A stretch of DNA of 62,999 nucleotides, counting the filler, from Collodictyon triciliatum (Eukaryota), in NCBI GenBank assembly GCA_043381765.1. It is 7 parts of 7 records of this genome, joined end to end, with 100 filler letters (N's around TTAATTAATTAA, not from the genome) between each part and the next. Parts side by side here need not be neighbours in the genome. Positions count along the whole stretch, not along the records: positions 56,724 to 62,999 come from JBHJMP010003065.1; 6 more parts are not named here. One strand, 5' to 3'. Position numbers and translations under genes: made by a program. Below are positions 181-62,999 of the stretch, piece after piece. The notes below the pieces were generated by a model, which searched no databases, was not told the origin of the DNA, and saw nothing but the letters and a program-made list of their open reading frames with translations. The first letter of the stretch is position 1. Each line of letters starts with the position of its first letter.

Positions 181-3100
181 TTAGAGATTAGGTGTTGCAC
201 CATCGGCGAAATTTTTCATCCTTTCTTCTTTTCTAAAATCCTGCCATTTCATCCCAGCATTCGTAACAATAGATGAACTTAAAACCTTTTCGATTATGTA
301 ATGTGCAAAGATATAGATCTTTTCATAGAATGATACAATAAATCCCGGTCCTGCTTTCATCAAGGATATAATAGCTATCATTCCGTTAAGTAAAACTACC
401 ATAACAATAAGAGCAATCTCAATGGAATAAGTCAATTCTACGTATCGGAATAGCAAACTGGCCATCAGTGTAAAATAAAGGACCGAAACAGACCAGATAT
501 GTGATTTTTTCAAAAGCTTCGACATTAATGGCTCAAAATACAATGATGATGCGATACTTAATATCAATATCCAAAGACCAAAGTAAATTTGTAGAGCTGG
601 GGAAAAGAATGAACTGATCAAAACAATTAGTAACTTTTGCATCATAGTCACGATTTCCCAATAATAGCATCGATTTGTATAGCCGTCAACCAAAAATCTT
701 AGCAAATTATAAGTTTTGGATTTGGAGTTAGCCAATGATGCCCTTTTGTAAAACATGTATCCACCAAGAATTAAAGGTCCACCAAAACAGTATAAAATGA
801 CATAAGACAGAGATATGTTTTTCCATGTGAGATAAGTTGTATCGTTGCAACTAATTGACATGTCAGATCTCAAGTAACTTTCATCTCCCAGCTCCTCACA
901 ACTAAATATGCTCGATATTGTTGAAGTGATAGTTGGATGGACAAAAAACAACATAACGAGCGTTGAGTATACAAATTCTTCTTTTAATTTAGAAACAGTA
1001 ATGTCAGCTTTTTTCATTTGATTTGTATACAATTTCCATAGGACTTTAATAAAAATGATGAAACACATTACTAAAACCAAAACGAGTGGCGTTATAATAG
1101 AATAAAACACTTTTTCGTAGATGGATATTTCGAACTGACATTCAGTTGTATAGCTATCTATTGAGAGTGTGAACGAAAACAAGGCCGGAATTTTCATTAT
1201 TGATATTAAATCAGAGCTCCAATTAACGTCCAGGTTGCCCAAATAGGACAAAATCTGAAAATGAGTCGCAAGAGTTTTGAGAATCTGAATACTCTCGGTT
1301 CTTGGTTGCCTCGATTGTTCCACCGTAAAAACAATGAAAGCAAGAGGAAGAATGATGCTTAAAAAGACCAAAAATCCATTCAACCCTTTTGGAGCACATT
1401 TAATACAAAAGAATTGGCCTGTTTTTCCATACCCTTTTTCACAAACGCCACACAAAACTCCTTTGTAACCCTCTGCGCAAGTGTTGTTTCCTCCGGTGCA
1501 AGCATCTTCATTGAGACATTCATAAGCAACATATACTGCATTGGAGCTTGGAGCTTGCCAGTATCCTGGTTGAACATTAAGATGACTGCTTCCATCACAA
1601 ACAAATCCATCAGGGCAGTCTTTGCACTGTCTAGAACTTGATTCTAAATACGTTGAACGAAGACACAAACAGTCACTTATTGTTGTCGACCCTAATATAT
1701 CTCCATTCCAACCACTTCCGCATGATATGCATTCTTTTTGACCTGCTGCAGGGTTGTACGTTCCGGATTTGCATAAAAAACATGAACTTTGGCCATTCAA
1801 TGGATTATAAGAGCCAGCTGTGCATAAAAGACAAGATTCTTGACCAGGTGATGGGTTGTATGTTCCCGCTGGACATGAAAGACAAGAACTAGAGTTTGTA
1901 GACCCAGTTGATGGGTTGTAATTTCCAGATGCGCATAAAATACAAGAACTAGGGCTTGTAGAGCCAGTCGACGGATTGTAAGTTCCAGCTGCGCATGGGA
2001 GACAAGTGCTGGAGTTTGAAGAACCACCTGATGGATTATAAGTCCCAGCTGCACATGAGATGCAAGCATCAGAGCTCGTAGAGCCAGTCGACGGATTGTA
2101 TGTTCCAGCTGTGCATGGGAGACAAGCACTTGAGCTCGTAGAGCCAGTCGACGGATTGTATGTTCCAGCTGCGCATGAGAGACAAGCGCTGGAGTTTGTA
2201 GAGCCAGTCGACGGATTGTATGTCCCAGCTGCGCATGAGAGACAAGAATCAGAGCTCGTAGAGCCAGTCGACGGATTGTATGTTCCAGCTGTACATGATA
2301 TACAAGAACTTGAGTTTGAAGACCCAGTTAATGGGTTGTAACTTCCAGCTGCGCATGAGAGACAAGCACTAGAGCTCGTAGAGCCAGTCGACGGGTTGTA
2401 TGTTCCAGCTGCACATGAAACACAAGCATTTGAGCTCGTAGAGCCAGTCGACGGGTTGTATGTTCCAGCTGCGCATGAGAGACAAGAATCAGAGCTCGTA
2501 GAGCCAGTCGATGGATTGAATGTTCCAGGTGCGCATGAGATACAATCACTTGAGCTCGTAGAGCCAGTCGACGGATTATATGTTCCAGCTGCACATGAGA
2601 GACAAGCACTTGAGCTCGTAGAGCCAGTAGACGGATTGTATGTTCCAGCTGTGCATGAGATACAAGCGCTGGAATCTGTAGAGCCAGTTGATGGGTTGTA
2701 TGTTCCAGCTGCGCATGAGAGACAAGCGCTGGAGTTTGTAGAGCCAGTCGACGGATTGTATGTTCCAGCTGCGCATGAGAGACAAGCGCTGGAGTTTGTA
2801 GAGCCAGTCAATATATTGTATGTTCCAGCTGCGCATGAGATACAAGAATCAGAGCTCGTAGAGCCAGTTGATGGGTTGTATGTTCCAGCTGAGCATGGGA
2901 TACAAGAATCAGAGTTCGTAGAGCCAGTTGATGGGTTGTATGTTCCAGCTGCGCATCGGAGGCAATTGCTAGAGTTTGTAGAGCCACTTGACGGATTATA
3001 TGTTCCAGCTGCGCATGAGAGACAAGCACTTGAGCTCGTAGAGCCAGTTGATGGGTTGTATGTTCCAGCTGCACATGGGAGACAAGCGCTGGAGTTTGTA

Positions 3101-6100
3101 GAGCCTACTGATGGGTTGTATGTTCCAGCTGCGCATGAGAGACAAGCACTTGAGCTCTCAGAGCCAGTCGACGGATTGTATGTTCCAGCTACGCATGGGA
3201 TACAAGAATCAGAGCTCGTAGAGCCAGTCGACGGATTGTATGTTCCAGTTGCACATGAGAGACAATCGCTTGAGCTCGTAGAGCCAATTAATGGGTTGTA
3301 TTTTCCAGCTGCGCATGAGAGACAAGCGCTAGAGTTTGTAGAGCCATTCATTGGGTTGTATGTTCCAGCTGCGCATGAGAGACAAGCATCAGAGCTCGTA
3401 GAGCCAGTCGACGGATTGTATGTTCCAGCTGCACATGAGATACAAGAATCAGAGCTCGTAGAGCCAGTTGATGGGTTGTATGTTCCAGCTGCACATGAGA
3501 GACAAGCACTTGAGCTCGTAGAGCCAGTTGATGGGTTGTATGTTCCAGCTACGCATGAGATACAAGCATTAGAGTTTGTAGAGCCAGTTGATGGGTTGTA
3601 TGTTCCAGCTGCGCATGAGAGACAAGCGCTGGAGTTTGTAGAGCCAGTCAACGGATTGTATGTTCCAGCTGAGCATGAGATACAAGAATCAGAGCTCGTA
3701 GAGCCAGTTAATGGGTTGTATGTTCCAGCCGCACATGATATACAAGAACTTGAGTTTGTAGACCCAGTTATTGGGTTGTATGTTCCAGCTGAGCATGAGA
3801 TACAAGAATCAGAGCTCGTAGAGCCAGTTGATGGGTTGTATGTTCCAGCTGCGCATGAGAGACAAGCACTTGAGCTCGTAGAGCCAGTTGATGGGTTGTA
3901 TGTTCCAGCTGCGCATGAGATACAAGCACTGGAGTTTGTAGAGCCTATTGATGGGTTGTATGTTCCAGCTGAGCATAGGATACAATCGCTGGAGTTTGTA
4001 GAGCCAGTAGATGGATTGTATGTTCCAGCTGAGCATAGGATACAAGCGCTGGAGTTTGTAGAGCCAGTAGATGGATTGAATGTTCCAGCTGAGCATAGGA
4101 TACAAGCGCTGGAGTTTGTAGAGCCAGTAGATGGATTGTATGTTCCAGCTGAGCATGGAGTACAATCGCTGGAGTTTATAGAGCCAGTTAATGGGTTGTA
4201 TGTTCCAGCTGAGCATGGAGTACAAGAACTTGAGTTTGTAGACCCAGTTGATGGGTTGTATGTTCCAGCTGCACATGAGATACAAGCGCTGGAGTTTGTA
4301 GAGCCAGTCGACGGATTGAATGTTCCAGCTGAGCATAGGATACAATCGCTGGAGTTTGTAGAGCCAGTAGATGGATTGTATGTTCCAGCTGAGCATGGAG
4401 TACAAGAATCAGAGCCCGTAGAGCCAGTTGATGGGTTGTATGTTCCAGCTGCGCATGAGATACAAGCATTAGAGTTTGTAGAGCCAGTTGATGGGTTGTA
4501 TGTTCCAGCTGCACATGAGATACAAGAACTTGAGCTCGTAGAGCCAGTTGATGGGTTGTATGTTCCAGCTGAGCATGAGATACAAGAATCAGAGCTCGTA
4601 GAGCCAGTTGATGGGTTGTATGTTCCAGCTGCGCATGAGAGACAAGCACTTGAGCTCGTAGAGCCAGTTGATGGGTTGTATGTTCCAGCTGCGCATGAGA
4701 GACAAGCACTTGAGCTCGTAGAGCCAGTTGATGGGTTGTATGTTCCAGCTGCGCATGAGATACAAGAACTTGAGTTTGTAGACCCAGTTGATGGGTTGTA
4801 TGTTCCAGCTGAGCATGGAGTACAAGAATCAGAGCTCGTAGAGCCATTTGATGGGTTGTACGTTCCTGAGGGGCATAATGAGCAAGAATCATAGCTCGTA
4901 GAGCCAGTTGATGGATTGTATGTTCCAGCTGCGCATGAAATACACGCACTGGAGCTTGTTGAGCCGATGGATGGGTTATATGTTCCAGCTGCGCATGATG
5001 TGCAACTTGCTTGTCCAGTTAATTGATTGTATGTTCCAGCTGCGCATGAGAGACAAGCGCTGGAGTTTGTAGAGCCAGTAGACGGATTGTATGTTCCAGC
5101 TGCACATGAGATACAAGCGCTGGAGTTTGTAGAGCCAGTAGACGGATTGTATGTTCCAGCTGCACATGAGATACAAGCGCTGGAGTTTGTAGAGCCAGTC
5201 GATGGATTGAATGTTCCAGCTGAGCATAGGATACAAGCGCTGGAGTTTGTAGAGCCAGTCGAAGGGTTGTATGTTCCAGCTGGGCATAGATTGCAATATC
5301 CACTTCCAATGCTACTATAGGTCCCAGGCGGGCATAATTGACAAGACTTCAAAATTGAATCATAAAAAAAACCAGCACGGCAAAATCCCAGAATTTTTAC
5401 TTCCCCATTGTAGTAATCACCACTTCCAGAAACGATTTTTGAGCCATCAGGAGTAACAGCAACACTAATAACCCAATTAGTATGACCAGCCAATGTGTCA
5501 ATCAAAGCTCCATCAGAAAGATTCCAAATTATGATTAAACTATCCCACCCTCCAGAAACAATTTTTGAGCCATCAGGAGTAACAGTAGCACTGCGAACAA
5601 TCGAAGTATGACCAGTCAGTGTGCGAATTAAAGCTCCATCAGAAAGGTTCCAAATCTTGATTGTATAATCACCACTTGCAGAAACAATTTTTGAACCATC
5701 AGGAGTAACAGCGACACTGTTAACACCACCAGTATGACCAGTCAGTGTGCGAATCAAAGCTCCATCAGAAATATTCCAAATCTTGATCGCCATATCACCA
5801 CTTCCATAATACTCAGCACTTCCAGAAACAATTTTTGAACAATCAGGAGTGACAGTTACGCTCATAACAAAGATTGTATGACCAGTTAGTACACGAATCA
5901 AAGAGCCATCAGATAGATTCCAAATTTTAATTGTATTATCATCACTATATAACCCACCACTTCCAGAAACAATTCTTGAATCGTCAGGAGCAACAGCAAC
6001 ACTGTTGACACAACCAGCACCATTCAATGTACGAATCAAGGCTCCATCGGTAATATTCCATACTTTAATTGTGCTATCACTACTTCCGGAAACAACTTTT

Positions 6101-6457
6101 GAGCCATCAGGAGCAACAGCCACACTATTAACGCTACTAGTATGACCAGTCAATGTATGAATTAAAAATCCATCAGAAAGATTCCAAATTTTAACCACTC
6201 TATCAGCACCTCCAGAAGCAATTTTCGAGCCGTCAGGAGTTACAGTAACACTGTACACACAACTAGTATGGCCAGTTAATGTGCGGATCAAGTATTCCTC
6301 CTGTCCGTTAACTTGAAACAACAAGAAGAATATATATCCTAAAATTTTATCTTTATTGAAAATGTAATTTTTGTCAATGGAATAAAAAAAATAAGATTTT
6401 CAGAATTAACTCACCAGAGAGTAAAAAAGTTATGGAATACTTTGAATTCGATTTCAT
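181..6457 (-). CDS. Large surface/receptor-like protein: signal peptide, 7 WD40 repeats, ~58-60 Cys-rich 20-aa repeats (GCC2/GCC3 / ephrin-receptor-like type), Cys-rich juxtamembrane domain, multi-pass TM domain
   Basis: 2047-aa ORF (181..6324) plus an upstream exon 6457..6415 (ATG...TCT G|GTGAGT; intron 6414..6339 ending TTTTAG). Splicing gives MKSNSKYSITFLLSGYIFFLLFQVNG-QEEY, a hydrophobic signal peptide. WD40 units read LIRTLTGHT..V.SV.VTPDGSKIVSGS.D..IKIW. Repeat consensus is CAAGTYNPSTGSTNSSACIS. The C-terminus has CxEGYxGxLCxxC and many hydrophobic helices. Confidence 0.9.
1700..5340 (-). repeat. Coding tandem repeat, 60-bp unit (20 aa), ~58-60 copies
   Basis: Successive 60-nt lines are almost identical (tgttccagct gcgcatgaga...gagccagttg atgggttgta). 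One shortened 51-bp unit near 4980-5030 shifts the register. Confidence 0.97.
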
Positions 6458-22388: not shown

Positions 22389-23130
22389 TCACTTGCAGTC
22401 AGAGTAGCGAAGTATGCGGGCGTGTTTCAGCAGGCTGTTCAGGAAGCTGTATTGCACGAGGCTTTCAAGCCTGGCTACATTGATTTCTCGTTCGGGTGAA
22501 TCATTAGAGCGGGAGAATGCACGCACACTCCATAAGGACCACAGCATATGTCCCCTTGTGACTGTCCAGAGTATTCTAGAGTCGTGGGTCATTTGGTATT
22601 GTGGGCCAAACAGGATGTCAGACGCGCTGAGTCGGTTGGGAGCATAATCCAGCTCAGAGAGCATCTTGTGGGTAGACTCTGTCACTTTTTGAGCAAGAGA
22701 GCACTTCACAAATGAGTGTTCGATAGAGTCATCTCCACTATGGCACATGGTGCATTCTGGAGAGGTCGTTGCTGCATGGACTACGCGCGCACCTATCCAC
22801 AGCTCTCTGTTGGAGATATTGAGTAGTAGGGCGCGGTGTTTCGGAAGTAATATTGGTATGCATTTGTTGGCGAGTGTGGCGCCTTCGGGAGACCGCAAGA
22901 TGAATGCTGTGTCGTCTGCATATTGAAGTAGCAGTTGGTTGCGCGCCTTGTTTTCGTTTCGGAAGTAGTTTGCGAGGCAGTCAGCGACGAAGTTGAAGAG
23001 CAGTGGTGCAAGTGGGCAGCCTTGATACAAGTCACTCTGTCTTTGGATTGCTTCTGTAGGTCCGTGTGCCGTGAGCATCGTCGCTGTTGCATTGCCGTGC
23101 AGTATCTTGATAAGGCTGGTGAATCCGGTA
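22389..23130 (-). mobile_element. Non-LTR retrotransposon (L1/Tx1-like) relic: RT motifs plus zf-RVT
   Basis: QGCPLAPLLFN and QYADDT RT motifs followed by CxxC...EH...C (CTMCHSGDDSIEHSFVKC) and LWSLW. 5'-truncated and internally deleted. Confidence 0.85.
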
Positions 23131-23905
23131 CATAAGCCTCTTTTCCGCCGATAACGAAAAAAGCAAATGACATATGCTACAACCGCATGTAGAATATAGT
23201 TTCTTTGAAATATGAGTTTGTTATTAATTTTCACATAAGCAAATTATATGCATTTATCAATGATAAGTTGTATTACGCATGTTCAGGGCCAGTACCCGGT
23301 ATGTTTTGCTTTTCGCTGGATGTATATGACATCATTTATGACACTCTCATTGACATCATTTCCTATGCGCCATCCTGGCAATAACGGCCAGCGTATCTTC
23401 TATCGCATAAGAAGTAACATATGGAGCAAGTGTATATATTCCGATCGAGAACAAGGTTCACATCGCTCGCATTCAAAGGATGAAATCCACCGGAAGAAGC
23501 CTGCCAGGGAAGGAATTTCTAGCGAGACAGAAATTGGAAGAAGGAAGCATTTCTAGTGATCGAAATTAGCAGCCGGGATGGCAACCTCACGCGTTGTGAA
23601 CTCTGCCATCGTTGCTGACCAACTAAACATGCTAAATCACAGGTCAGACTACGAGTCTCTGTAGAAATGCCGAACAGCCATTCTGAACTCCACCAGAGAC
23701 CAAAGAAAACAAAAACTGACACTTTTTGATACAATCGCCGAACCTGTGACAGATGAGGACTTCAGCGAGATTTGGAATCCTTTTTGGACAACCAAAACCT
23801 TTTCACGTTAGTCTGAAATCTGGCATGAAAAATGAGTGGCGGGGACGAGAAGACAATACACAAACCTGGCACATGAAGAATGACCACTAACACCCATTTC
23901 GAAAC

Positions 23906-38067: not shown

Positions 38068-41000
38068 ATGCTTAATAGATACTCGAAGATCTCATCCTGT
38101 ATCGTCATTATTACTGTTTTGATATTCTCGAATATATCTGTCAGCTCATCAGAGAGGTTTGATATGTTTTTTCCCTAGATTTTTTTATTCTTTTTGCTTG
38201 CTATTGATAATGCACCTTTGATCCACAGAAATAGATGTCGTTTTTCCAAGGATACATTACTATCGATGAGAATTGAAGATGCGTTCCAAATTTTAATTAA
38301 TATGTATGAAGATATTTGCCCTTCAATACCCGAGACGCACAGCAATCACAAACAATCGGCATTAATTCGAGCTGATGATATATCAGAGTCAGTTTTCAAC
38401 GCGAATATCATTCAGGAAATGGGCGGAGATAAACATAACTACTCGGAAGAAGTTTATCACTACACAAAAGACTTTTTGGTCCATTCTAATAATGCAGATT
38501 TCAAGACATTAAACGAAAGGAGGCCACTCAAACTAAAAAACAACATCAAAATGTCAACGCAATATAATCTACTCATTCAATTATATGATATTCTTGGTGG
38601 AGACAATTGGATACGTAGAAATGGATGGAAAAGTACAACCACGCAAATTTGTTCTTGGTATGGAATAGAATGCTCAAGAAGTTGCTCAAGTGAGGAGTAT
38701 ACAGTACGTTTTTCTATGCTCTTTTTTGGAAAATTATTACCATTTAAAATCATATGACCTGCTCTCTTTCCTCTATTCGATTCAAAGAAAATCATACTAG
38801 CTACATAAATAATAGGCGAATACATGCCCCATTATTGGAATTTACCTGGCTAGTAATAATGTTATTGGTAATATCGAAGATGCGTCTGTGGTTTTCGAAC
38901 AATTGACTCTGCTAACGAAACTTCAGATCCAGATCAACTCACTTTATGGAAATCTTCCAGATTTTGACCTTCCCAACTTGTCTTTATTGAATCTGAGTAA
39001 TAATAAAATATTTGGGACAATACCAGATTTCAAAAAGATTCCATGCATTCAAAATCTTCGATTTGATATAAATCTACTGGAGGGTACAGTTCCTGATTTT
39101 TCTGGCATTCCCATGGCAACACAAATACGATTGGGAGCAAACAGTAAAATTTCAGGTTTGAATTAGATGCCCACTTATTTCTTTCAAAAAAAATATATTG
39201 TTCTTAATAGAAAGTATTGATGAAATGATAAATGAACCTAGGAACCCTCGCAGATTTTTCAGGAATACCAAATGTTGAACTGCTTTCGATAACTGAAAGC
39301 AATTTAAACGGTTTCTAACTGAATTCGATGTCTTGTTATAAGGATTACTGGTTTAATTCATAATTACTATAGGAACAATCCCGGATTTCCGTAACATCCC
39401 GAAACTCAAAGAATTGTGGCTCAGTAATAACAAAATAAGTGGTGAGTAGTCCTACACAAAAATTGAAAGGAATAATAATAAAAAAAAGTGGCGAGTAGTA
39501 TATATTTATTGATATTCATTTTTTAGAATTCACAATATAAAAAACACGGTTTAGGAGGAATCCCAAACTTCAGATATATAACTCTTGTCAAAAAGATTTC
39601 TGTTACAAATAATCAGCTCAGTGGTAAGTAATTTATGTGAAAATGTCATTCGATTTTCAAAAAATAAAATAAAATAAATTCTCATTGATCCAATTTTAGG
39701 TAGCATTCCAGACTTCAACAATGCATCGTTGATTGAGGCGATTTATTTTGACAACAATAATTTTTTTGGTGTGTTATGACCCATTTCAAAATTATAATAT
39801 AATCAGTTTACATTCAAAGAATACTATACCCAGGTATTGTACCTGATTTCAGTGGAATCCCCTTGATTGGTACTCTCGAAATGTACAACAATCAATTAAC
39901 TGGTGAGCTTGGTATTTATATATTGACTTAGGTATTAAATAAGTAACATAATGTCCAATGCAGGAACGATTCCAGATTTCAAAAACATGTCTAGAGTGCA
40001 AAAAATATCGATATCAAGCAATCTATTAACGGGCAAGTGTGTCACAAAATGTGTCCATATTGCGTGGATCGATCGAAAGTCTTCATTCTAAAAAAAAAAT
40101 TTGATCAAATTGTTAATATAGGGACAATACCAGATTTCAGTAATATTCCTAATGCCGTAGTCATTTATCTTTACAGCAACAGACTTAGTGGTTTGTGATA
40201 TAGTATGTCGAAATGAAAAGTTTACATATCTGAAATCTGTATTATTTCAGGAACAGTTCCATCCTTCAGTGGAATCCCTAAGGTTACCAACATATATGTC
40301 GGTAAAAACTATCTAAAAGGTGATTTTTTACAATTCAAAGTTTAGACAGTTTGATAAAAATTAATTTTAATACATCTTATCTCAGGAACGATACCGGACT
40401 TTGACAAAATCCCCAATCTCAAGAAGATTTCGTTTTCTAGTTGCCTTCTTAGTGGTGAAAAGAGACTTATTTTAATATGTATTTTGTGAAAATATTTACG
40501 CATGCTTTTATATATCAGGAACAATACCAAATTTCAAGAATATCATGAATATAGAGGATTTATACTTTGATGATAATAAATTGAATGGTGAGTTTTATCT
40601 TCTTTCTGTTTTGTTTTGTTTTGTTTTTGTTTTTGTTTGTTTGTTTTTTTTGTTTTTGTTTTTGTTTGTTTGTTTTTTTTGTTTTTGTTTTTGTTTTTGT
40701 TTTTGTTTTTGTTTTTGTTTTTGTTTGTTTGTTTGTTTGTTTGTTTGTTTGTTTGTTTGTTTGTTTGTTTGTTTGTTTGTTTGTTTGTTTGTTTGTTTGT
40801 TTGTTTGTTTTGTTTTGTTTTTATGTAAAAAAAAGCTGTGTTTTATTTCAATTAAAATTAAATGCCGATCAGGAACGATTCCCGAATTTAGTAAAATGCC
40901 GAAAATCAACCTCCTTTATTTTTCTACAAACCTTCTGGAGGGTAAGAGTTGCTCTATCCTGAAAGAATAATGCTTCTTGCACTAATACCGATGAAAAAAC

Positions 41001-44000
41001 AGGAACCATTCCGAATTTCAAAAGCATTCCAAACGTAAAAGAGATAAACTTTATGGGCAACAGACTCAATGGTGAATATTACTTTAAACTGATATAATGG
41101 TGGAGTTTTTTTTTTTTTGTGTGTGCGTGTGTGTGTGTATTATTTTAAATTACTTCAGGAACCTTGGCCGATTTTGAATCAATCCCGCTACTTGTAACAT
41201 TATCTTTGTCAAGCAATCAACTCATTGGTGAGTTTTTCCTCCTAATATTTTGTTCTGGTCTCGTCACACATATATGGCTGATTAATTTACATAACAAGTC
41301 TTTTGATCATCGATATTATTTTTGCTTTATTGTACAGGAACTATTCCAAACTTTTCCTACCTTGGAAAAATGGAATATTTTTCGGTGTATGATAATCGCA
41401 TTGAAGGGACTCTTCCAGCACTGGACAAATGCTACAATTTAAAGGAGCTTGTTCTATTCCGAAACAAATTAACAGGAACTTTTCCATCTTTCAAAATCTC
41501 AAAGCTAACAAAGCTCGATGCAGCTGAAAATCAGATAACTGGCTATTTACCCGTTGATTGGAATATTCCCTCGATACAGTATATCGACTTATCTAGAAAC
41601 AAAATGAGTGGAAATGTTCCATCAAACTTGGAAAACCTTATGCTCCTGAAGACCCTCATATTGTCACATAATCAATTCTTTGGTAGCATGCCAACGAAAT
41701 TTTGGATATTACCGAATCTTTTGTTGGTTGACTTAAGAAATAATAGTTTTTTTGAAGATGTTGGTTTGTTTATCGTTCCTTCTTCAGGAAATTTCGATAA
41801 TTACAGCTATGAAACTCTTCTTCTAGATGACAATAAACTCTATGGAGAATTGAACTGGAGAATTTTCAATTTTGTGGAAAACGTAAAGACGGTGAGCTTG
41901 AAAAACAATAATATTACTGCACTTGGTGATGTGACTAATGTATTAAAATGGACCTCTCTCGGGCTTTCAGGAAACCCAATCATCGGAACTATTCCTGAAT
42001 CATACAGCCAGTTATTAAAATTAGAGCAATTGGAATTGGCAGACACTTTTATGAATCGCGGAACTGCAAATTTCCTGCCTAATTTTATGACATACTCAAC
42101 GCCATACAATTTGAAGGATGAATCAAAGCTTTTTATATGCCCTTCCGTTTTTGCAAAGTTTGGCTTGATTGAATTAAATGTAGATTTGAATCCGACATAT
42201 TATGATTATGAGTTTTGCAAGTGCTTGCCTGGATATTTTGGATTTGGAGATAACTGTGTGCAGTGCCCTCGTGAATGCGAATGTCTCGATGGGACTCTAC
42301 TGAGCCACTGCCATGCTTCACCTACCATAGCTGGAGTGAAGTCAATCATCCAATGTCCACGACCAGAATCTTGCAAAACCGTGATTCCTCTTAAAAACTC
42401 GAAAACAAACGTGACGGTCGAGATATCTCAATTATGCGAGGAAGGATATGAAGGTCATGCCTGCTCAAAATGTCAATTTGGATACGGAAATCAAGGAAGG
42501 TCTTGTGTTAAATGCGACGAAGGAACGATTTATTCAACCTTGATTCTCAGTTCAACGGCTTTTTGTGTCTTTATAGCCTATCTTTACTTTTCGGAAACAT
42601 CAAAATCAGGTAATTAACAAAAAAAAAAAAAAAAAAAGGTTTGCCTAACTTTTGCTCTACGCTTAAGTAATTTTTTTAACATTTTTTTTTTTTTTTGCCG
42701 ATAGCTAAGCTCAGAATTACCATGTTCCACATGCAAACCCTATCGATCATATCCTCTGGAATCATTCAATCTGAAGATGCTGGCAGCTTTATCGAGTTTT
42801 CTTCGTCGATCGGTTCAATCCAATTTCCCAATGTGTCGTGTGTGCTTGGAATGGATGATCTTTTTGATTCGATGTTGTATAGTTTTTTGAGAATTCCTTG
42901 TTTTATTATTTTGGGAGTGGCGACATACTATTTCGGCCGTGGGCACTCTCGCAACAAGGTAATTTTCGGTAATTAATGCTGAATTGGCGATTAATTAGAG
43001 CTCTTAATGATACCCTTTCTCTTCTCTTCTCTTAGGCCATTTTTATTACATTGAATCTCTTGTTTTTCATCTACTATTCGGTTGCAAGAGAAGTCTTTGG
43101 GGTCTTGGGATGCACTGTTTACGATTATGGTGAGTATGCGTGGTACCTCAACTACGCCCCCTGGGTTAAGTGCAGTCCAGCATCGGATGAATATCATAGA
43201 CTCCTCGGAATATCCATTCCTATCTTTTTTCTTTTCATGATTGGCTTACCAGCATTTTTGTGGTGGAGGGTCAACATCATGTTTAAAAAGTCTGGTTATG
43301 AGCCGGAGGCCCGATATGGATTCCTATACTTGCCTTACAAGGAGGTCAGTATCTTTCTCTTAATCAATTGCTTCCTTTCCCCAAAACATTGGTTGTTGCC
43401 TTTCATATTTCCATAGCTATTGGTCAGTTTTTTATATTTCATTTTTGTCTTTTCGTACACATGAAAACATTTCTCATGTATGTCTGCACATGACGTCCAC
43501 TCATATTTTTTTATTTGTTCTGTAGAGCTTCAGGCATTGGGAATTTGTAATCATACTGAGGCGTCTTGCGTTTTCTTTCATTATCAGCGTGATTCCTTAT
43601 ACAAGCCCATCCGTTTTCTTTTTATCTCTTGTCGTAGTTATCCAGGTTGGTATTTCACGGTGGCAATTATTTTTTATATAAAAAAGTTGTTGGACTTGAA
43701 TCATAACCATTGTTTTATTTTAACAGAATGTTTAAATAATTGTAATGAATTCTTTTGTCGTACATAGGGCTCGATTTGGATGCAGAAAGAGTACAAGCCA
43801 TACAACACAAAGATTGAAAATCAAATGGAATTATCCAGCTTGTATGTCATTTTCGTTTCCTTTTTCTTGGCGCTTCTGTCTAGCTTTCTTGGGTCGCAGG
43901 GATGGATCACAGTGTTATTGATTGGGACGAATTCATTATGGCTGATGTACTTTATCAGCATCGCATTCTTGATTCCTATGTTTCAAAGTAACACAGTAAA

Positions 44001-44067
44001 AAGGAAGCTACATGAAATGAAGAGGCTGGCCCGAAGGAATCCTCCTTTCGACATATCCTCCAAATAA
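38068..44067 (+). CDS. LRR / Cys-rich / multi-pass TM receptor-like protein, paralogue A (~21 exons; 13 single-LRR exons)
   Basis: Signal peptide MLNRYSKISSCIVIITVLIFSNISVSS. LRR N-cap LLIQLYDILGGDNW...GW...ICSWYGIEC. Plant-RLK-type LRRs LxxNxLxGxIP. CEEGYEGHACSKC. TM region with YGFLYLPYK|ESFRHWEFVIILRR and KPY...NQME. Splice phases consistent where checked. Confidence 0.9.
40607..40820. repeat. (GTTTTT)n/(GTTT)n intronic microsatellite
   Basis: Directly visible between two LRR exons. Confidence 0.95.
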
Positions 44068-58680: not shown

Positions 58681-61600
58681 ATGATGTTAGTTACGTTTGT
58701 TGCCGTCGTTTTCATTGTTTCATCGGCGTCCTCAATTCATACTCGGCAAAGGTATGCTTCGATTTATGATGATTTATAAAAAAAAAATACTTTCGATTAA
58801 TATTGCAAATACAGATGCCAGTATTCAAGAGATGAGTTGCTTTCCATGAATGTCGAAAATGCATTCCAAATTCTGTTGAGCCACTATGATGAGGCGTGTC
58901 CTTTGTCAAATGAGAGTGAGGAGAATTTTTCAGAATTGGTGAATAGCTGCAAAGACGAAGAATACTCCCATGAAAATGGACATGATGCTGAATGGAATTA
59001 TGAAAGGAAATTAACATCTAGTAAGGTCGACTACTATGAAGAAATTCATTCTCCAAAACGAAGTGGAAACAGAGAACGGGTGTTGGGGATTGAAGAGAAC
59101 CGAAGTGTGGCCGATGGAAATAATGGGACCCAATACGAACTCCTTGTCCAACTTTACGATTTACTTGGCGGCTATAATTGGTTTTGGAACACTGGATGGA
59201 ATAATGAAAGTATTCCAATTTGTGATTGGTATGGAATTTCCTGCCATCAGAGTTGCTCGGATGAGGATTATAAGGTGATCTCTTGAAATGATAATAATCT
59301 CTTTTGATTTCATTTTTAACAATTTTTCTTTATGTCTATAGAGCAATACATGCCCCATATTCAGAGTCAGGATGTCAGGAAATAATCTTAAGGGTGATAT
59401 TGAAGCCGCCTCTGCGATTTTTGAGAGGTTCCAATTATTGGATTACTTGGACATGAGCTACAACTTCATTAATGGAAATCTCCCAGACCTGAATCTTCCA
59501 AGTATTACATATTTGAACCTTTATGGAAATCGAATTACTGGAACGATTCCAGACTTTCAAGGAATACCGAATATCCAACATATTGAGATTCATGGAAATG
59601 AATTGGAAGGAACAATACCAGATTTTTCTGGAATTCAGTCGCTGAAGACACTGTGGATTGGTGAAAGTGAAAAAATCACAGGTATAAACTAATTTTTAAT
59701 ATGATTTCTTCTGGGTTCTAATGATTTTTTCATTTCAGGAATTCTGCCTGATTTCTCGGGGTTGCCATATCTTCAGAACCTTCAGATTTATGGCTGCGAT
59801 ATTCATGGTTTGTTTTTTTATTCAAAAAAAAAGTGATAGCAAGAAAGTCCAACTTTATATTACAGGAACGGTTCCAAACTTTACGTGGATTCCAAAGGTT
59901 TTAGAAATATGTCTTCACAGCAATCAATTGACCGGTTAGTTTATATTATTCCATATATATTTTTGAATCATTACTTACTTTTTTATTATAGGGACAGTTC
60001 CAAACTTCAGTGGAATTCTGAATATTTTAAGAGTTTACCTTAACAACAATCAATTGGATGGTAATTATGATTGTTATTTCATTTATTATTGATAATACTA
60101 ACTTTGCATTATAGGAACCGTTCCAAATTTCAGTGAAATTCTGAGTGTTGAAAGAATTTATCTAAACGACAATCAATTAACTGGTAAGTTTTATGATTAT
60201 ATTATGAATTTTTTTGTAAAAAAAGCTGATCAAATTTTTATTACAGGAACCGTTCCAAACTTCAGTGAAATTCTGAGTGTCATAGATATTTCTCTTCTCA
60301 ATAACCAATTGACCGGTAATTTTTATTATACTTTCATGTATTATTGATGTAAAACCAACTTTATACCACAGGAACAGTTCCAAACTTCAGTGAAATTCCA
60401 CAAGTTGAAAGAATTTATCTTTCCAGTAATCGAATGACGGGTATTTTTATGATTCATCGTGTGTTTTCGATAACAGAGACTAACTTTAAAACAACAGGAA
60501 CCGTTCCAAACTTTCGTGAAATTCCAAATGTTTTAAGGATATATCTTTACAGCAACCAATTGACTGGTACATTTTTATAATTTTTTCATGCATCATTTAT
60601 AGAAAAAGCTGACTTTATATTACAGGTACTATTCCAGCCTTCAATATGATTCCACATGTCGAAAGAATTTATCTTTACAACAACCAGTTGGATGGTAAGT
60701 TTCTATTATTATTTTACTTATTATTGATAGAAAAAGCTGACTAACTTTATACTATAGGAACGGTTCCAAACTTTAGTGAGATGCCCAGTGTCGAAAGAAT
60801 TTACTTTGACAGAAACAGATTGAATGGTGATTTCTAATTATTTTCCCTTCCTTAGATTTTCATATTTCCTTAAACATTAATGATTAATTTTAGGCACAAT
60901 ACCAGACCTTTCAAATATGCGTGAACTGGAGATTTTTTCTGTCTATGATAATCAACTGGAGGGAGAGATTCCAGATTTCAAAGATTGCAAAAACATCAAG
61001 GAAATCGTTTTGTTTCGTAACAAGTTGTCAGGCACACTACCGATGTTCAATCTAAATAATCTGACAAGACTGGATGTGAGCGAAAACCAAATCAGTGGCT
61101 CTATTCCCAATTACTGGTCATTGCCATCAATTAAATACATTGACTTGTCTTGGAACACGATGAACGGCACAGTCCCAACCTATTTTCAGGAATTAACAGA
61201 ACTGAAATCACTCGTTTTGTCTCACAATAAATTTTCTGGAAGCATGCCTGATTTATTTTGGAATCTGCCTAATATAGTCACTATTGATTTGAGAAATAAT
61301 TCTTTTTCAGGAGACGTTAGTGTTTTTGTTGTTCCAGAAGCAGGCAAATTTGATTATTTTTATGAAAACCTTTTTCTTGATGATAATGGACTCCATGGAG
61401 AATTAAATTTTAGGATATTTGAATTTGTTATCAACGTAAAAACATTAAGTCTTAAGAACAACAAGATCACCAAGCTTGATGACCTTACAAATCTCTTGAG
61501 CTGGGCTTCCCTTGACCTCACTGGAAATCCGATTGTTGGAAGCATTCCCGAATCATACATCGGATTTTCAAAGCTTGAGTATCTGGGATTAAATAAAACA

Positions 61601-62999
61601 TCGATGAATCACGGAACAGCCAATTTTCTTCCTGATTTCATGAATTTTATGACACCTTTCAATCTTCAAGATGCATCGAAACGCTACCTGTGCCCTTCTA
61701 TAATTTCAAAATCTGGTCTGATTGAGTCAGATGTTGACTTGAATCCAGAATACTATGACTTTGAACTTTGTAAATGCTTACCTGGATATTTCGGCTTTGG
61801 AAACAATTGTGTTCAATGCCCAAGAGGATGTGATTGCCTTGATGGAACGTCCTTGAAATTCTGTCATGCTTCACCAAGTATTGCCTCTGTGAAATCAATA
61901 CTGCCGTGTCCACGTCGAGAGTCATGTGATGTGTCGATTCCAGAGAAAATTTCAATTTCAAATACTACAGTCGAAATGACAGATCTGTGTCAGGAAGGCT
62001 ATGAAGGTTATGCCTGTTCAAAATGTCAAAATGGATACGGAAATCAAGGCAGGTCGTGTGTGAAATGTAATAAAGGAATGATTTATTCAACCCTGATTCT
62101 TGGTTCGATTGGATTTTTTATGTTCATTTGCTATCTGTATTTCACAGAGACATCAAAATCAGGTAAATGTTACTAAATTATTTCACTTTTATGATTCCTA
62201 TACTGATCAGAATATTTTTGTAGCGAAACTCAGGATAATAATGTTCCACATGCAAACACTGTCGATTTTGTCCAGTGGAATCGTTAACTCAGAAGATGCA
62301 AACAGTTTTATCGATGTCTCGTCTTCCATCGGCTCAATCCAATTTCCCAACCTTTCTTGTGTCCTTGGAGTAGACGATGTTTTTGCTTCTCTGATGTTCA
62401 GTTTTGCAAGAATACCAATCTTTATCATTGTTGGCTCAGCTACGTACTATTTCGGATATGGATACAAACAGAACAAAGTGAGGATGAAAAAACACATTCA
62501 ATTTTAAATCTTTATATTTGATCCAGTTTCATCTTTAGTAATTCTAATTTTTTCGGCAGGCCGTTTTCATCGCATTGAATCTTCTGTTTTTTATATACTA
62601 TTCGGTCGCAAGAGAGGTGTTTGGTGTTTTTGGATGCACCGTTTATGACGAAGGTGTGAATAAATGGTATTTGAATTTCAAGCCCTGGATTCAATGCAGC
62701 CCAGCCTCGGATGAATATCAAAACCTGCTTGCAATATCTGTCCCGGTTTTCATTCTTTTCTTGGTCGGTCTGCCTGCTTTTGTATGGTGGAAAGTGAAAA
62801 TCATGACAGAAAGACCTGGATACGAACCAGGAGCGCGATATGATTTCCTTTACTCGCCATACAAAGAGGTAATTGATTCAATACTCTTTCTTTTTGCATT
62901 ATAAATTGTGAATTAATATGAGACTAATGCTATTTAGACCTTCAAGTATTGGGAATTTGTCATAATCGCACGCCGCATCTCTTTTTCGTTTGTGCTTAG
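58681..62999 (+). CDS. LRR / Cys-rich / multi-pass TM receptor-like protein, paralogue B (9 single-LRR exons; 3' end beyond window)
   Basis: Signal peptide MMLVTFVAVVFIVSSASSI. Same exon scaffold as paralogue A. The large exon is co-linear with A (CKCLPGYFGFG.NCVQCPR.C.CLDGT, EGYEG.ACSKCQ.GYGNQGRSCVKC, KLRI.MFHMQTLSI, NLLFFIYYSVAREVFGV). Confidence 0.9.

Follow-up and report, generated by a model that had tools for sequence, protein, structure and literature searches.

The LRR domain of gene B is encoded in part by nine short exons of equal length, and the question raised by this locus is where these repeat units came from and what keeps them alike. A preliminary description had proposed recent duplication of whole exon and intron units within B. 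We consider it likely that germline intergenic recombination, combined with diversifying selection, has acted on LRR exon units throughout a subfamily, and that B is an ordinary, somewhat diverged member of that young subfamily of ~25-30 cell-surface protein genes. The window, meaning the whole 62,999-nt stretch of DNA that was analysed, consists of contigs of ~9.3-9.4 kb joined by N44-TTAATTAATTAA-N44 spacers, and adjacency across a spacer is uninformative on linkage. Physical linkage of B with its paralogue A was considered and set aside as unshown, as the two lie on separate contigs joined by spacers.

The layout of B runs from a signal-like start through a spacer with N-cap, fixed LRRs, nine cassette LRRs and a long exon to the tail exons (Table 1). 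The intron after exon 1 was found spliced out in a cDNA-like contig of a B paralogue, and the last intron is conserved by position across genes. The Cys-rich region of the long exon gave a weak match to DUF7630 (Pfam). The exon 2 region is one that we take to be an N-cap; Pfam LRRNT_2 was matched in 6 of 21 relatives.

Table 1. Coordinates of gene B and paralogue A in the window.
Feature	Position	Strand	Basis
B exon 1, signal-peptide-like hydrophobic start	58681..58751	+	ATG, GT donor, hydropathy peak at residues 1-19
B exon 2, spacer and Trp/Cys-containing LRR N-cap region (presumed)	58815..59274	+	open frame, AG/GT ends
B exon 3, fixed LRRs without internal introns	59342..59681	+	Pfam LRR_4, LRR_1, LRR_8
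Anchor intron 0 and first cassette, distinct type, position-conserved	59682..59807	+	unit-1 matches, tree clade
Seven internal 69-nt cassettes with homologous 54-63-nt introns, putative exchanged pool	59866..60694	+	identity, linkage, tree
Internal cassette starts	59866, 59992, 60115, 60247, 60372, 60498, 60626	+	
Last cassette (DRNRLN type) and anchor last intron	60758..60893	+	groups with last units elsewhere
B long exon: fixed LRRs, Cys-rich region, first membrane helix	60894..62162	+	Pfam
B membrane-tail exons 62224-62477, 62560-62868, 62938 onward	62224..62999	+	gene exceeds window end
Paralogue A, on another contig	38179..44067	+	13 old, diverged cassettes at 39242-41227, tail complete to stop codon

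Most of the structural account in the preliminary description was reproduced. Each of the nine exons was 69 nt long, bounded by AG and GT, of phase 1/1 and in one open frame, at periods of 127, 126, 123, 132, 125, 126, 128 and 132 bp (claimed as ~123-132 bp). The eight exposed peptides and four intron 3' ends that it quoted were exact; its 5' intron motif, GTAA(G/T)TTT, was true of only 3 of the 8 internal introns. Cassette number does differ between the paralogues (nine in B and 13 in A), no 1:1 orthology was found between B units and A units, and the rest of the two genes is co-linear, with agreeing flanking exon sizes (340/340, 1272/1269, 254/254 and 309/309). B cassettes are also more like one another than like A cassettes, as had been claimed: mean identity was 0.71 among B exons 2-9 (maximum 0.78), compared with 0.52 among A cassettes and 0.54 between A and B. 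The first cassette of B is of a different type, with an identity of 0.35-0.49 to the other B cassettes. The claimed mutual similarity of the B introns was also seen, since introns 1-8 had a mean identity of 0.635, above 200 shuffles (0.551 ± 0.010, maximum 0.580) and above 300 draws from 154 cassette introns of 44 distant paralogues, which are not random introns of the genome (0.525 ± 0.013, maximum 0.566); part of this likeness is branch-point and acceptor sequence. The 5' exon of A was not located, and its tail contains 8 hydrophobic segments. A is a poor comparison for B because it is too distant (64% amino acid identity in the long exon), and the comparison of B with A alone was dropped as a test once ~25 closer paralogues were found.

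A genome search with part of the long exon returned 305 candidates, of which 131 were scored and all 131 matched; a few of these are split pieces of one gene. B is one of more than 100 LRR, Cys-rich, multi-pass-membrane genes in the genome. In addition to A and B, 100 loci were modelled. The cassette zone was taken as complete when both anchors were present without a gap (n = 68), and the number of cassettes per complete zone ranged from 3 to 18, with 4-17 in close paralogues of B. Nearly all called cassettes (903 of 906) were 69 nt, as called with a profile itself trained on 69-nt units, and none of the 906 contained a stop codon. The first cassette of locus L035 is 70 nt, which is either a frameshift or an assembly error, and the frame is kept if it is skipped. 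A TAT microsatellite expansion was seen in L036, in the cassette intron before unit 7. Five distant paralogues (among L135-L139 and L141) have long intronless LRR runs, in frames of 727-951 aa, followed by the same Cys-rich region; therefore the one-repeat-per-exon state is limited to part of the family. The single genome holds three states of this family: intronless LRR arrays, old and diverged one-exon arrays as in A, and the young exchanging pool to which B belongs. In two distant members, L113 and L116, the arrays look locally homogenised (maximum within-gene identity 0.96 in L113), suggesting independent recent expansions outside the B subfamily.

Unit identity was compared in a core set of 24 genes with a median identity of at least 0.78 to the consensus of six of them, a choice that favours homogeneity; L021 was added for later counts. 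Among the 157 internal units, identity was 0.800 within genes (525 pairs) and 0.794 between genes (11,721 pairs), and B, at 0.71, had the lowest within-gene identity of the 24. Of the 37 unit pairs that were at least 94% alike, 32 were in different genes. Local duplication also happens, as a minor component: 19.8 of 157 units had their nearest neighbour within their own gene, where 6.7 would be expected, and an association with gene at p ≤ 0.01 was seen for 5 of 19 markers. Within the cassette zone of B there was no exact 30-nt match of B to itself; B did have exact tracts of 30-44 nt in common with other genes (longest 44 nt).

The unit tree was built from 88 units of nine genes. B1 grouped with first units of other genes (support 95), and its best matches were unit 1 of other genes (0.81-0.87); B9 grouped with the last units of five other genes (support 92). 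Unit comparisons of this best-match kind, which set the best of many genes against the best of one, are biased. B4 grouped with L027 unit 4 (support 96), and B6 with L027 unit 5 and L016 unit 9 (support 99). The monophyly of B2-9 was rejected (AU p = 1.3e-6), in a test with 5000 replicates whose constrained tree came from a fast search, so that the gap is overstated. The first and last units are positional anchors, and the internal units behave as a shared pool. Recent duplication within B was thus not upheld, as B2-9 form no clade and share tracts with other genes rather than with each other. The related proposal that the cassette zone is a hotspot of expansion and homogenisation stands for the gain and loss of whole exon and intron units, and does not stand for an origin private to B. 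The likeness of B units is subfamily-wide and is kept up by intergenic exchange.

Exchange between genes was followed with linkage among 126 units from 24 genes. The r2 fell from 0.068 at 3-10 nt to 0.011 beyond 20 nt, and linkage between variants was gone beyond ~15-20 nt. Marker pairs were associated at p < 0.01 in 4 of 11 cases within 6 nt, 2 of 26 at 7-15 nt and 1 of 134 beyond 15 nt. Restricted to exons, the distance test at 3-10 nt gave no significant result (p = 0.12), and therefore the distance signal leans on the aligned introns. Three sets of genes record exchange directly, independent of these statistics. Units 7-11 of L057 match units 3-7 of L066 at 588 of 614 nt, out of register, while exon 3 of the two genes is just 80% alike. 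L046 and L052 have 1087 of 1129 nt of the long exon in common, as well as the first and last units, but no internal 1:1 units, the best internal match being at most 54 of 69 nt. L053, L055 and L056 carry a B-type ectodomain up to long-exon alignment column ~640-680 and then a second tail type, which is also found in L054, L057 and L059 and whose tail exon is 41-46% identical to that of B. Short-range linkage is no proof of short tracts: the same pattern builds up over time from many long events, and one tract of five units is present.

These observations would be accounted for as follows. Each internal LRR corresponds to a symmetric phase-1 exon with a homologous intron, a symmetry that would allow units from any gene to pair out of register. 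Unequal crossover or gene conversion, between as well as within genes, could then add, remove and remix units with the frame intact; this choice of recombination type is our inference. Repeated exchange would leave the units as mosaics whose variants are no longer linked across distances above ~15-20 nt. Under selection, the framework would stay constant and many alternatives would be kept at five exposed strand positions, so that every gene has its own series of binding faces.

The x positions of the LRR segment xxLxLxxN are exposed, and in the cassettes these are codons 13, 14, 16, 18 and 19, as assigned from the LRR consensus rather than from a cassette model. The suggestion that diversification is concentrated on the binding face was borne out for this predicted exposed strand: exposed codons had a pN of 0.43 and a pS of 0.21, against 0.09 and 0.31 in framework codons, as pairwise counts on non-independent, recombining sequences that are descriptive and involve no formal codon model. 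The p-distance of the intron core was 0.26. The corresponding positions of the fixed LRRs in the long exon gave a pN of 0.028 (15 genes). The contrast between exposed cassette positions and fixed LRRs is strong, if descriptive, and selection is its probable cause. The fixed LRRs of the same proteins serve as an internal control, being conserved at the positions that vary in cassettes. The variable faces may serve to recognise external ligands, for example prey, parasites or viruses.

The 119 distinct five-residue faces found in 161 units, the very fine patchwork, the confinement of variation to cassette exons and the whole replacement of internal arrays between genes with 96%-identical flanks would also fit a targeted, still-active diversifier, remixing faces within clones or populations by VLR-like, templated short-tract conversion. 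We regard this as unlikely. A contig from the metagenome run X2 matched 60368-60623, covering units 6-7 with their introns, with 2 differences in 256 nt, which as a single piece speaks weakly against very fast ongoing change in B. The 44-nt limit on exact tracts shared with other genes and the absence of stop codons from called cassettes count against such a diversifier as well, as does the absence of antisense donor cassettes from the 89 introns of at least 140 nt; a cassette-like stretch was found in 7 of these, all on the sense strand, some of them probably 72-nt exons that the calling had missed. The same short-range linkage would moreover be expected from many ordinary long tracts accumulated over time. 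It is similarly improbable that a unicell akin to Diphylleia has a dedicated templated diversifier for one receptor subfamily, in which very short conversion tracts would reshuffle a fixed vocabulary of strand residues among interchangeable LRR exons lying between conserved anchor units, at a rate high enough for clones to differ. If true, surface recognition would draw on a combinatorial repertoire, and ectodomains could be reused on two membrane tails.

Somewhat more doubtful is one ancestral burst from a single unit, after which genes duplicated, units were lost and hot sites underwent recurrent point mutation, with little intergenic exchange. The unit tree is star-like, with internal branches making up 20% of its length, cassette pS (0.31) is close to long-exon LRR pS between genes (0.28-0.32), and long-exon linkage beyond 10 nt is likewise at the equilibrium level (17 genes), all of which a burst would explain. 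Simulations on the fitted tree alone (n = 60) gave an r2 of 0.039 (maximum 0.059) at 3-10 nt and 0.041 (minimum 0.027) beyond 20 nt, missing both linkage statistics in 60 of 60 runs, and the near/far ratio was at most 1.35, compared with 6.2 observed. Codon 13 was TTA in 67 of 161 units and GAA in another 67, with no one-step intermediates; this two-base dimorphism was present within 19 of 25 genes, and the codon was associated with its two neighbouring codons only. The out-of-register tract of 96% and the tail chimeras, for their part, require exchange. The history of the units is not tree-like.

Chimeras of assembly or amplification are a very improbable source of the mosaic and of the spread in copy number. 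With 14,576 contigs the assembly is fragmented, the zone is repetitive and there is the 70-nt cassette of L035, but the units differ at about one base in five, and the mosaic is finer than the exact overlaps that assemblers usually need. The three tail chimeras differ mutually (84-88% upstream, 87-94% downstream), and two database proteins match L100 and L084 at 99%. Runs X1 and X2 both contain pieces of B at ~99%, and the X2 match speaks against artefact. In contigs of run X1, successive cassettes are joined directly with a period of 69 nt and the intron at 62478-62559 is missing; pieces of this run differed from the 3' part of B at 1 of 299 nt and at 1 of 188 nt. None of the runs was labelled as RNA; X1 was taken as cDNA from the spliced joints and an adapter-like end, which we presume to be an adapter. 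Splicing thus occurs in the family, and a close relative probably transcribes B or a near copy of it. Skipping of cassettes would keep the frame but was not seen. Runs X3 and X10 gave no piece informative on copy number. A metagenome scan gave no confirmed relatives among 234 pattern matches, and a word-seeded protein search gave 1 match among 295 candidates.

The least credible account is that the array arose by recent, private tandem duplication of units in B: tandem duplicates do occur in other members (L055 units 7 and 8, at 0.99), B units are more alike than A units and the B introns are homologous, but the B-B maximum of 0.78, the lack of exact self matches, the grouping of B4 and B6 with units of L027 and L016, and the AU test of B2-9 all oppose it.

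Proteins of the subfamily are predicted to have a signal peptide, 23-residue plant-type LRRs, a Cys-rich region and a multi-pass membrane tail. Their LRR sequences matched the plant receptor kinases GSO1, MIK2, FLS2 and TDR (E to 1e-74), and the best PDB sequence matches of the B long exon were plant LRR receptor ectodomains. A single-sequence fold of that exon was discarded (pLDDT 43). With the model of a spliced relative, P0139 (pLDDT 85), fold searches covering the LRR part only gave plant LRR ectodomains as best matches (Z 21-22, rmsd 2.2-2.7, ~225 aligned). In the tail of this model, long helices form a bundle. We considered calling the family "7TM GPCR" and decided against it; no GPCR Pfam families were listed for the 21 relatives. 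The Atlas lead for the tail was PF06011 TRP, at a 12-13% member share.

Nine of the ten full-length or near-full-length matches that were looked up were Diphylleia rotans transcript proteins (EukProt). Their identity to B was 34-53% in a tail exon and 31-42% in the long exon, the latter indicating kinship and not the same species. The D. rotans LRR, Cys-rich, multi-TM transcript proteins have the same domain order as B; unlike B, none of the 21 relatives checked had the B-type cassette motif. Three Diphylleia-type relatives (alignment A2 rows 9, 18 and 20) have a NIDO domain beside the LRRs.

Exchange of LRR exons is known from ciliates and brown algae, and the present case differs in unit length, phase, fixed anchors, receptor type and lineage. 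Tetrahymena LRR-exon arrays resemble B in that one LRR occupies one symmetric exon of exact length, exon number varies among inparalogues, and exons are often closest to those of other genes, for which ectopic recombination or conversion has been proposed. The Tetrahymena units are 90 bp and of phase 2, whereas those of B are 69 nt and of phase 1. REP retrotransposons lie beside young units in Tetrahymena, while the B introns, at 54-67 nt, have no room for a LINE-like element, and the B array, unlike those of Tetrahymena, stands between fixed anchors in a multi-pass membrane protein.

In the part of the Ectocarpus ROCO account that we draw on, the type I LRR exon starts at the Gly of GxxP, the same boundary as in B, recombination is intra- and intergenic, near-identical paralogues differ in the LRR zone, and selection falls on the concave face (PMC3341825). 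According to the same portion, the Ectocarpus units are 72 nt with a ROCO GTPase, in contrast to 69 nt with a signal peptide and membrane tail in B, and inverted intronic LRR exons are common there, while the 89 long introns contained none (PMC3341825). No Pfam ROC family was found in the exons scanned or in the 21 relatives. For plant Type I R-genes, the excerpt used describes paralogues as patchworks formed by frequent sequence exchange, beside slow-evolving relatives, whose counterpart here would be the A-like genes; these are NB-LRR intracellular receptors, and a one-repeat-per-exon array is absent from the descriptions in that excerpt (PMC4619397). Plant LRR-RK/RLP proteins share the plant-type LRR ectodomain with the B family (by sequence, and by fold via P0139), although the LRR-RK have a single helix and a kinase, and the B family has a 23-residue repeat, a Cys-rich region and a multi-pass tail. 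Somatic assembly of VLRs starts from an incomplete germline gene and flanking donors, in contrast to the complete in-frame arrays here (with wider flanks covered at four loci). A literature search, with most subscription journals outside its reach, found no paper on this Collodictyon/Diphylleia LRR-exon family.

Germline exchange with selection would make this an independent case of LRR exon-array shuffling, from a lineage that has received little study and on an extracellular domain belonging to a multi-pass membrane protein. The family offers a tractable system in which to learn whether unicellular eukaryotes maintain diversified recognition repertoires, and what these recognise.

Several further features were observed. 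A shared, partly broken ORF region follows three second-tail genes, at ~3670-4900 in L121, ~3690-4700 in L123 and ~3870-5110 in L125 (oriented), and we take it to be reminiscent of LINE ORF1. A fragment at 22389-23243 (-) of the window resembles a non-LTR reverse transcriptase, presumably on account of a YADD motif. At 25697-28327 (-) a long frame in a stretch of 60-70% GC, with a C-terminal hydrophobic segment and a composition unlike the rest of the window, contains several motifs that we assume to be Cu/Zn-superoxide-dismutase-like. An intronless 2072-aa frame at 181-6399 (-) has ~58 copies of a 20-aa Cys-rich repeat, DUF7630, a multi-pass tail and repeats presumed to be WD40-like. Its tail is weakly similar to a B tail exon (27% over 71 aa, pairwise E 3e-4), and it is possibly the same membrane module under another ectodomain.
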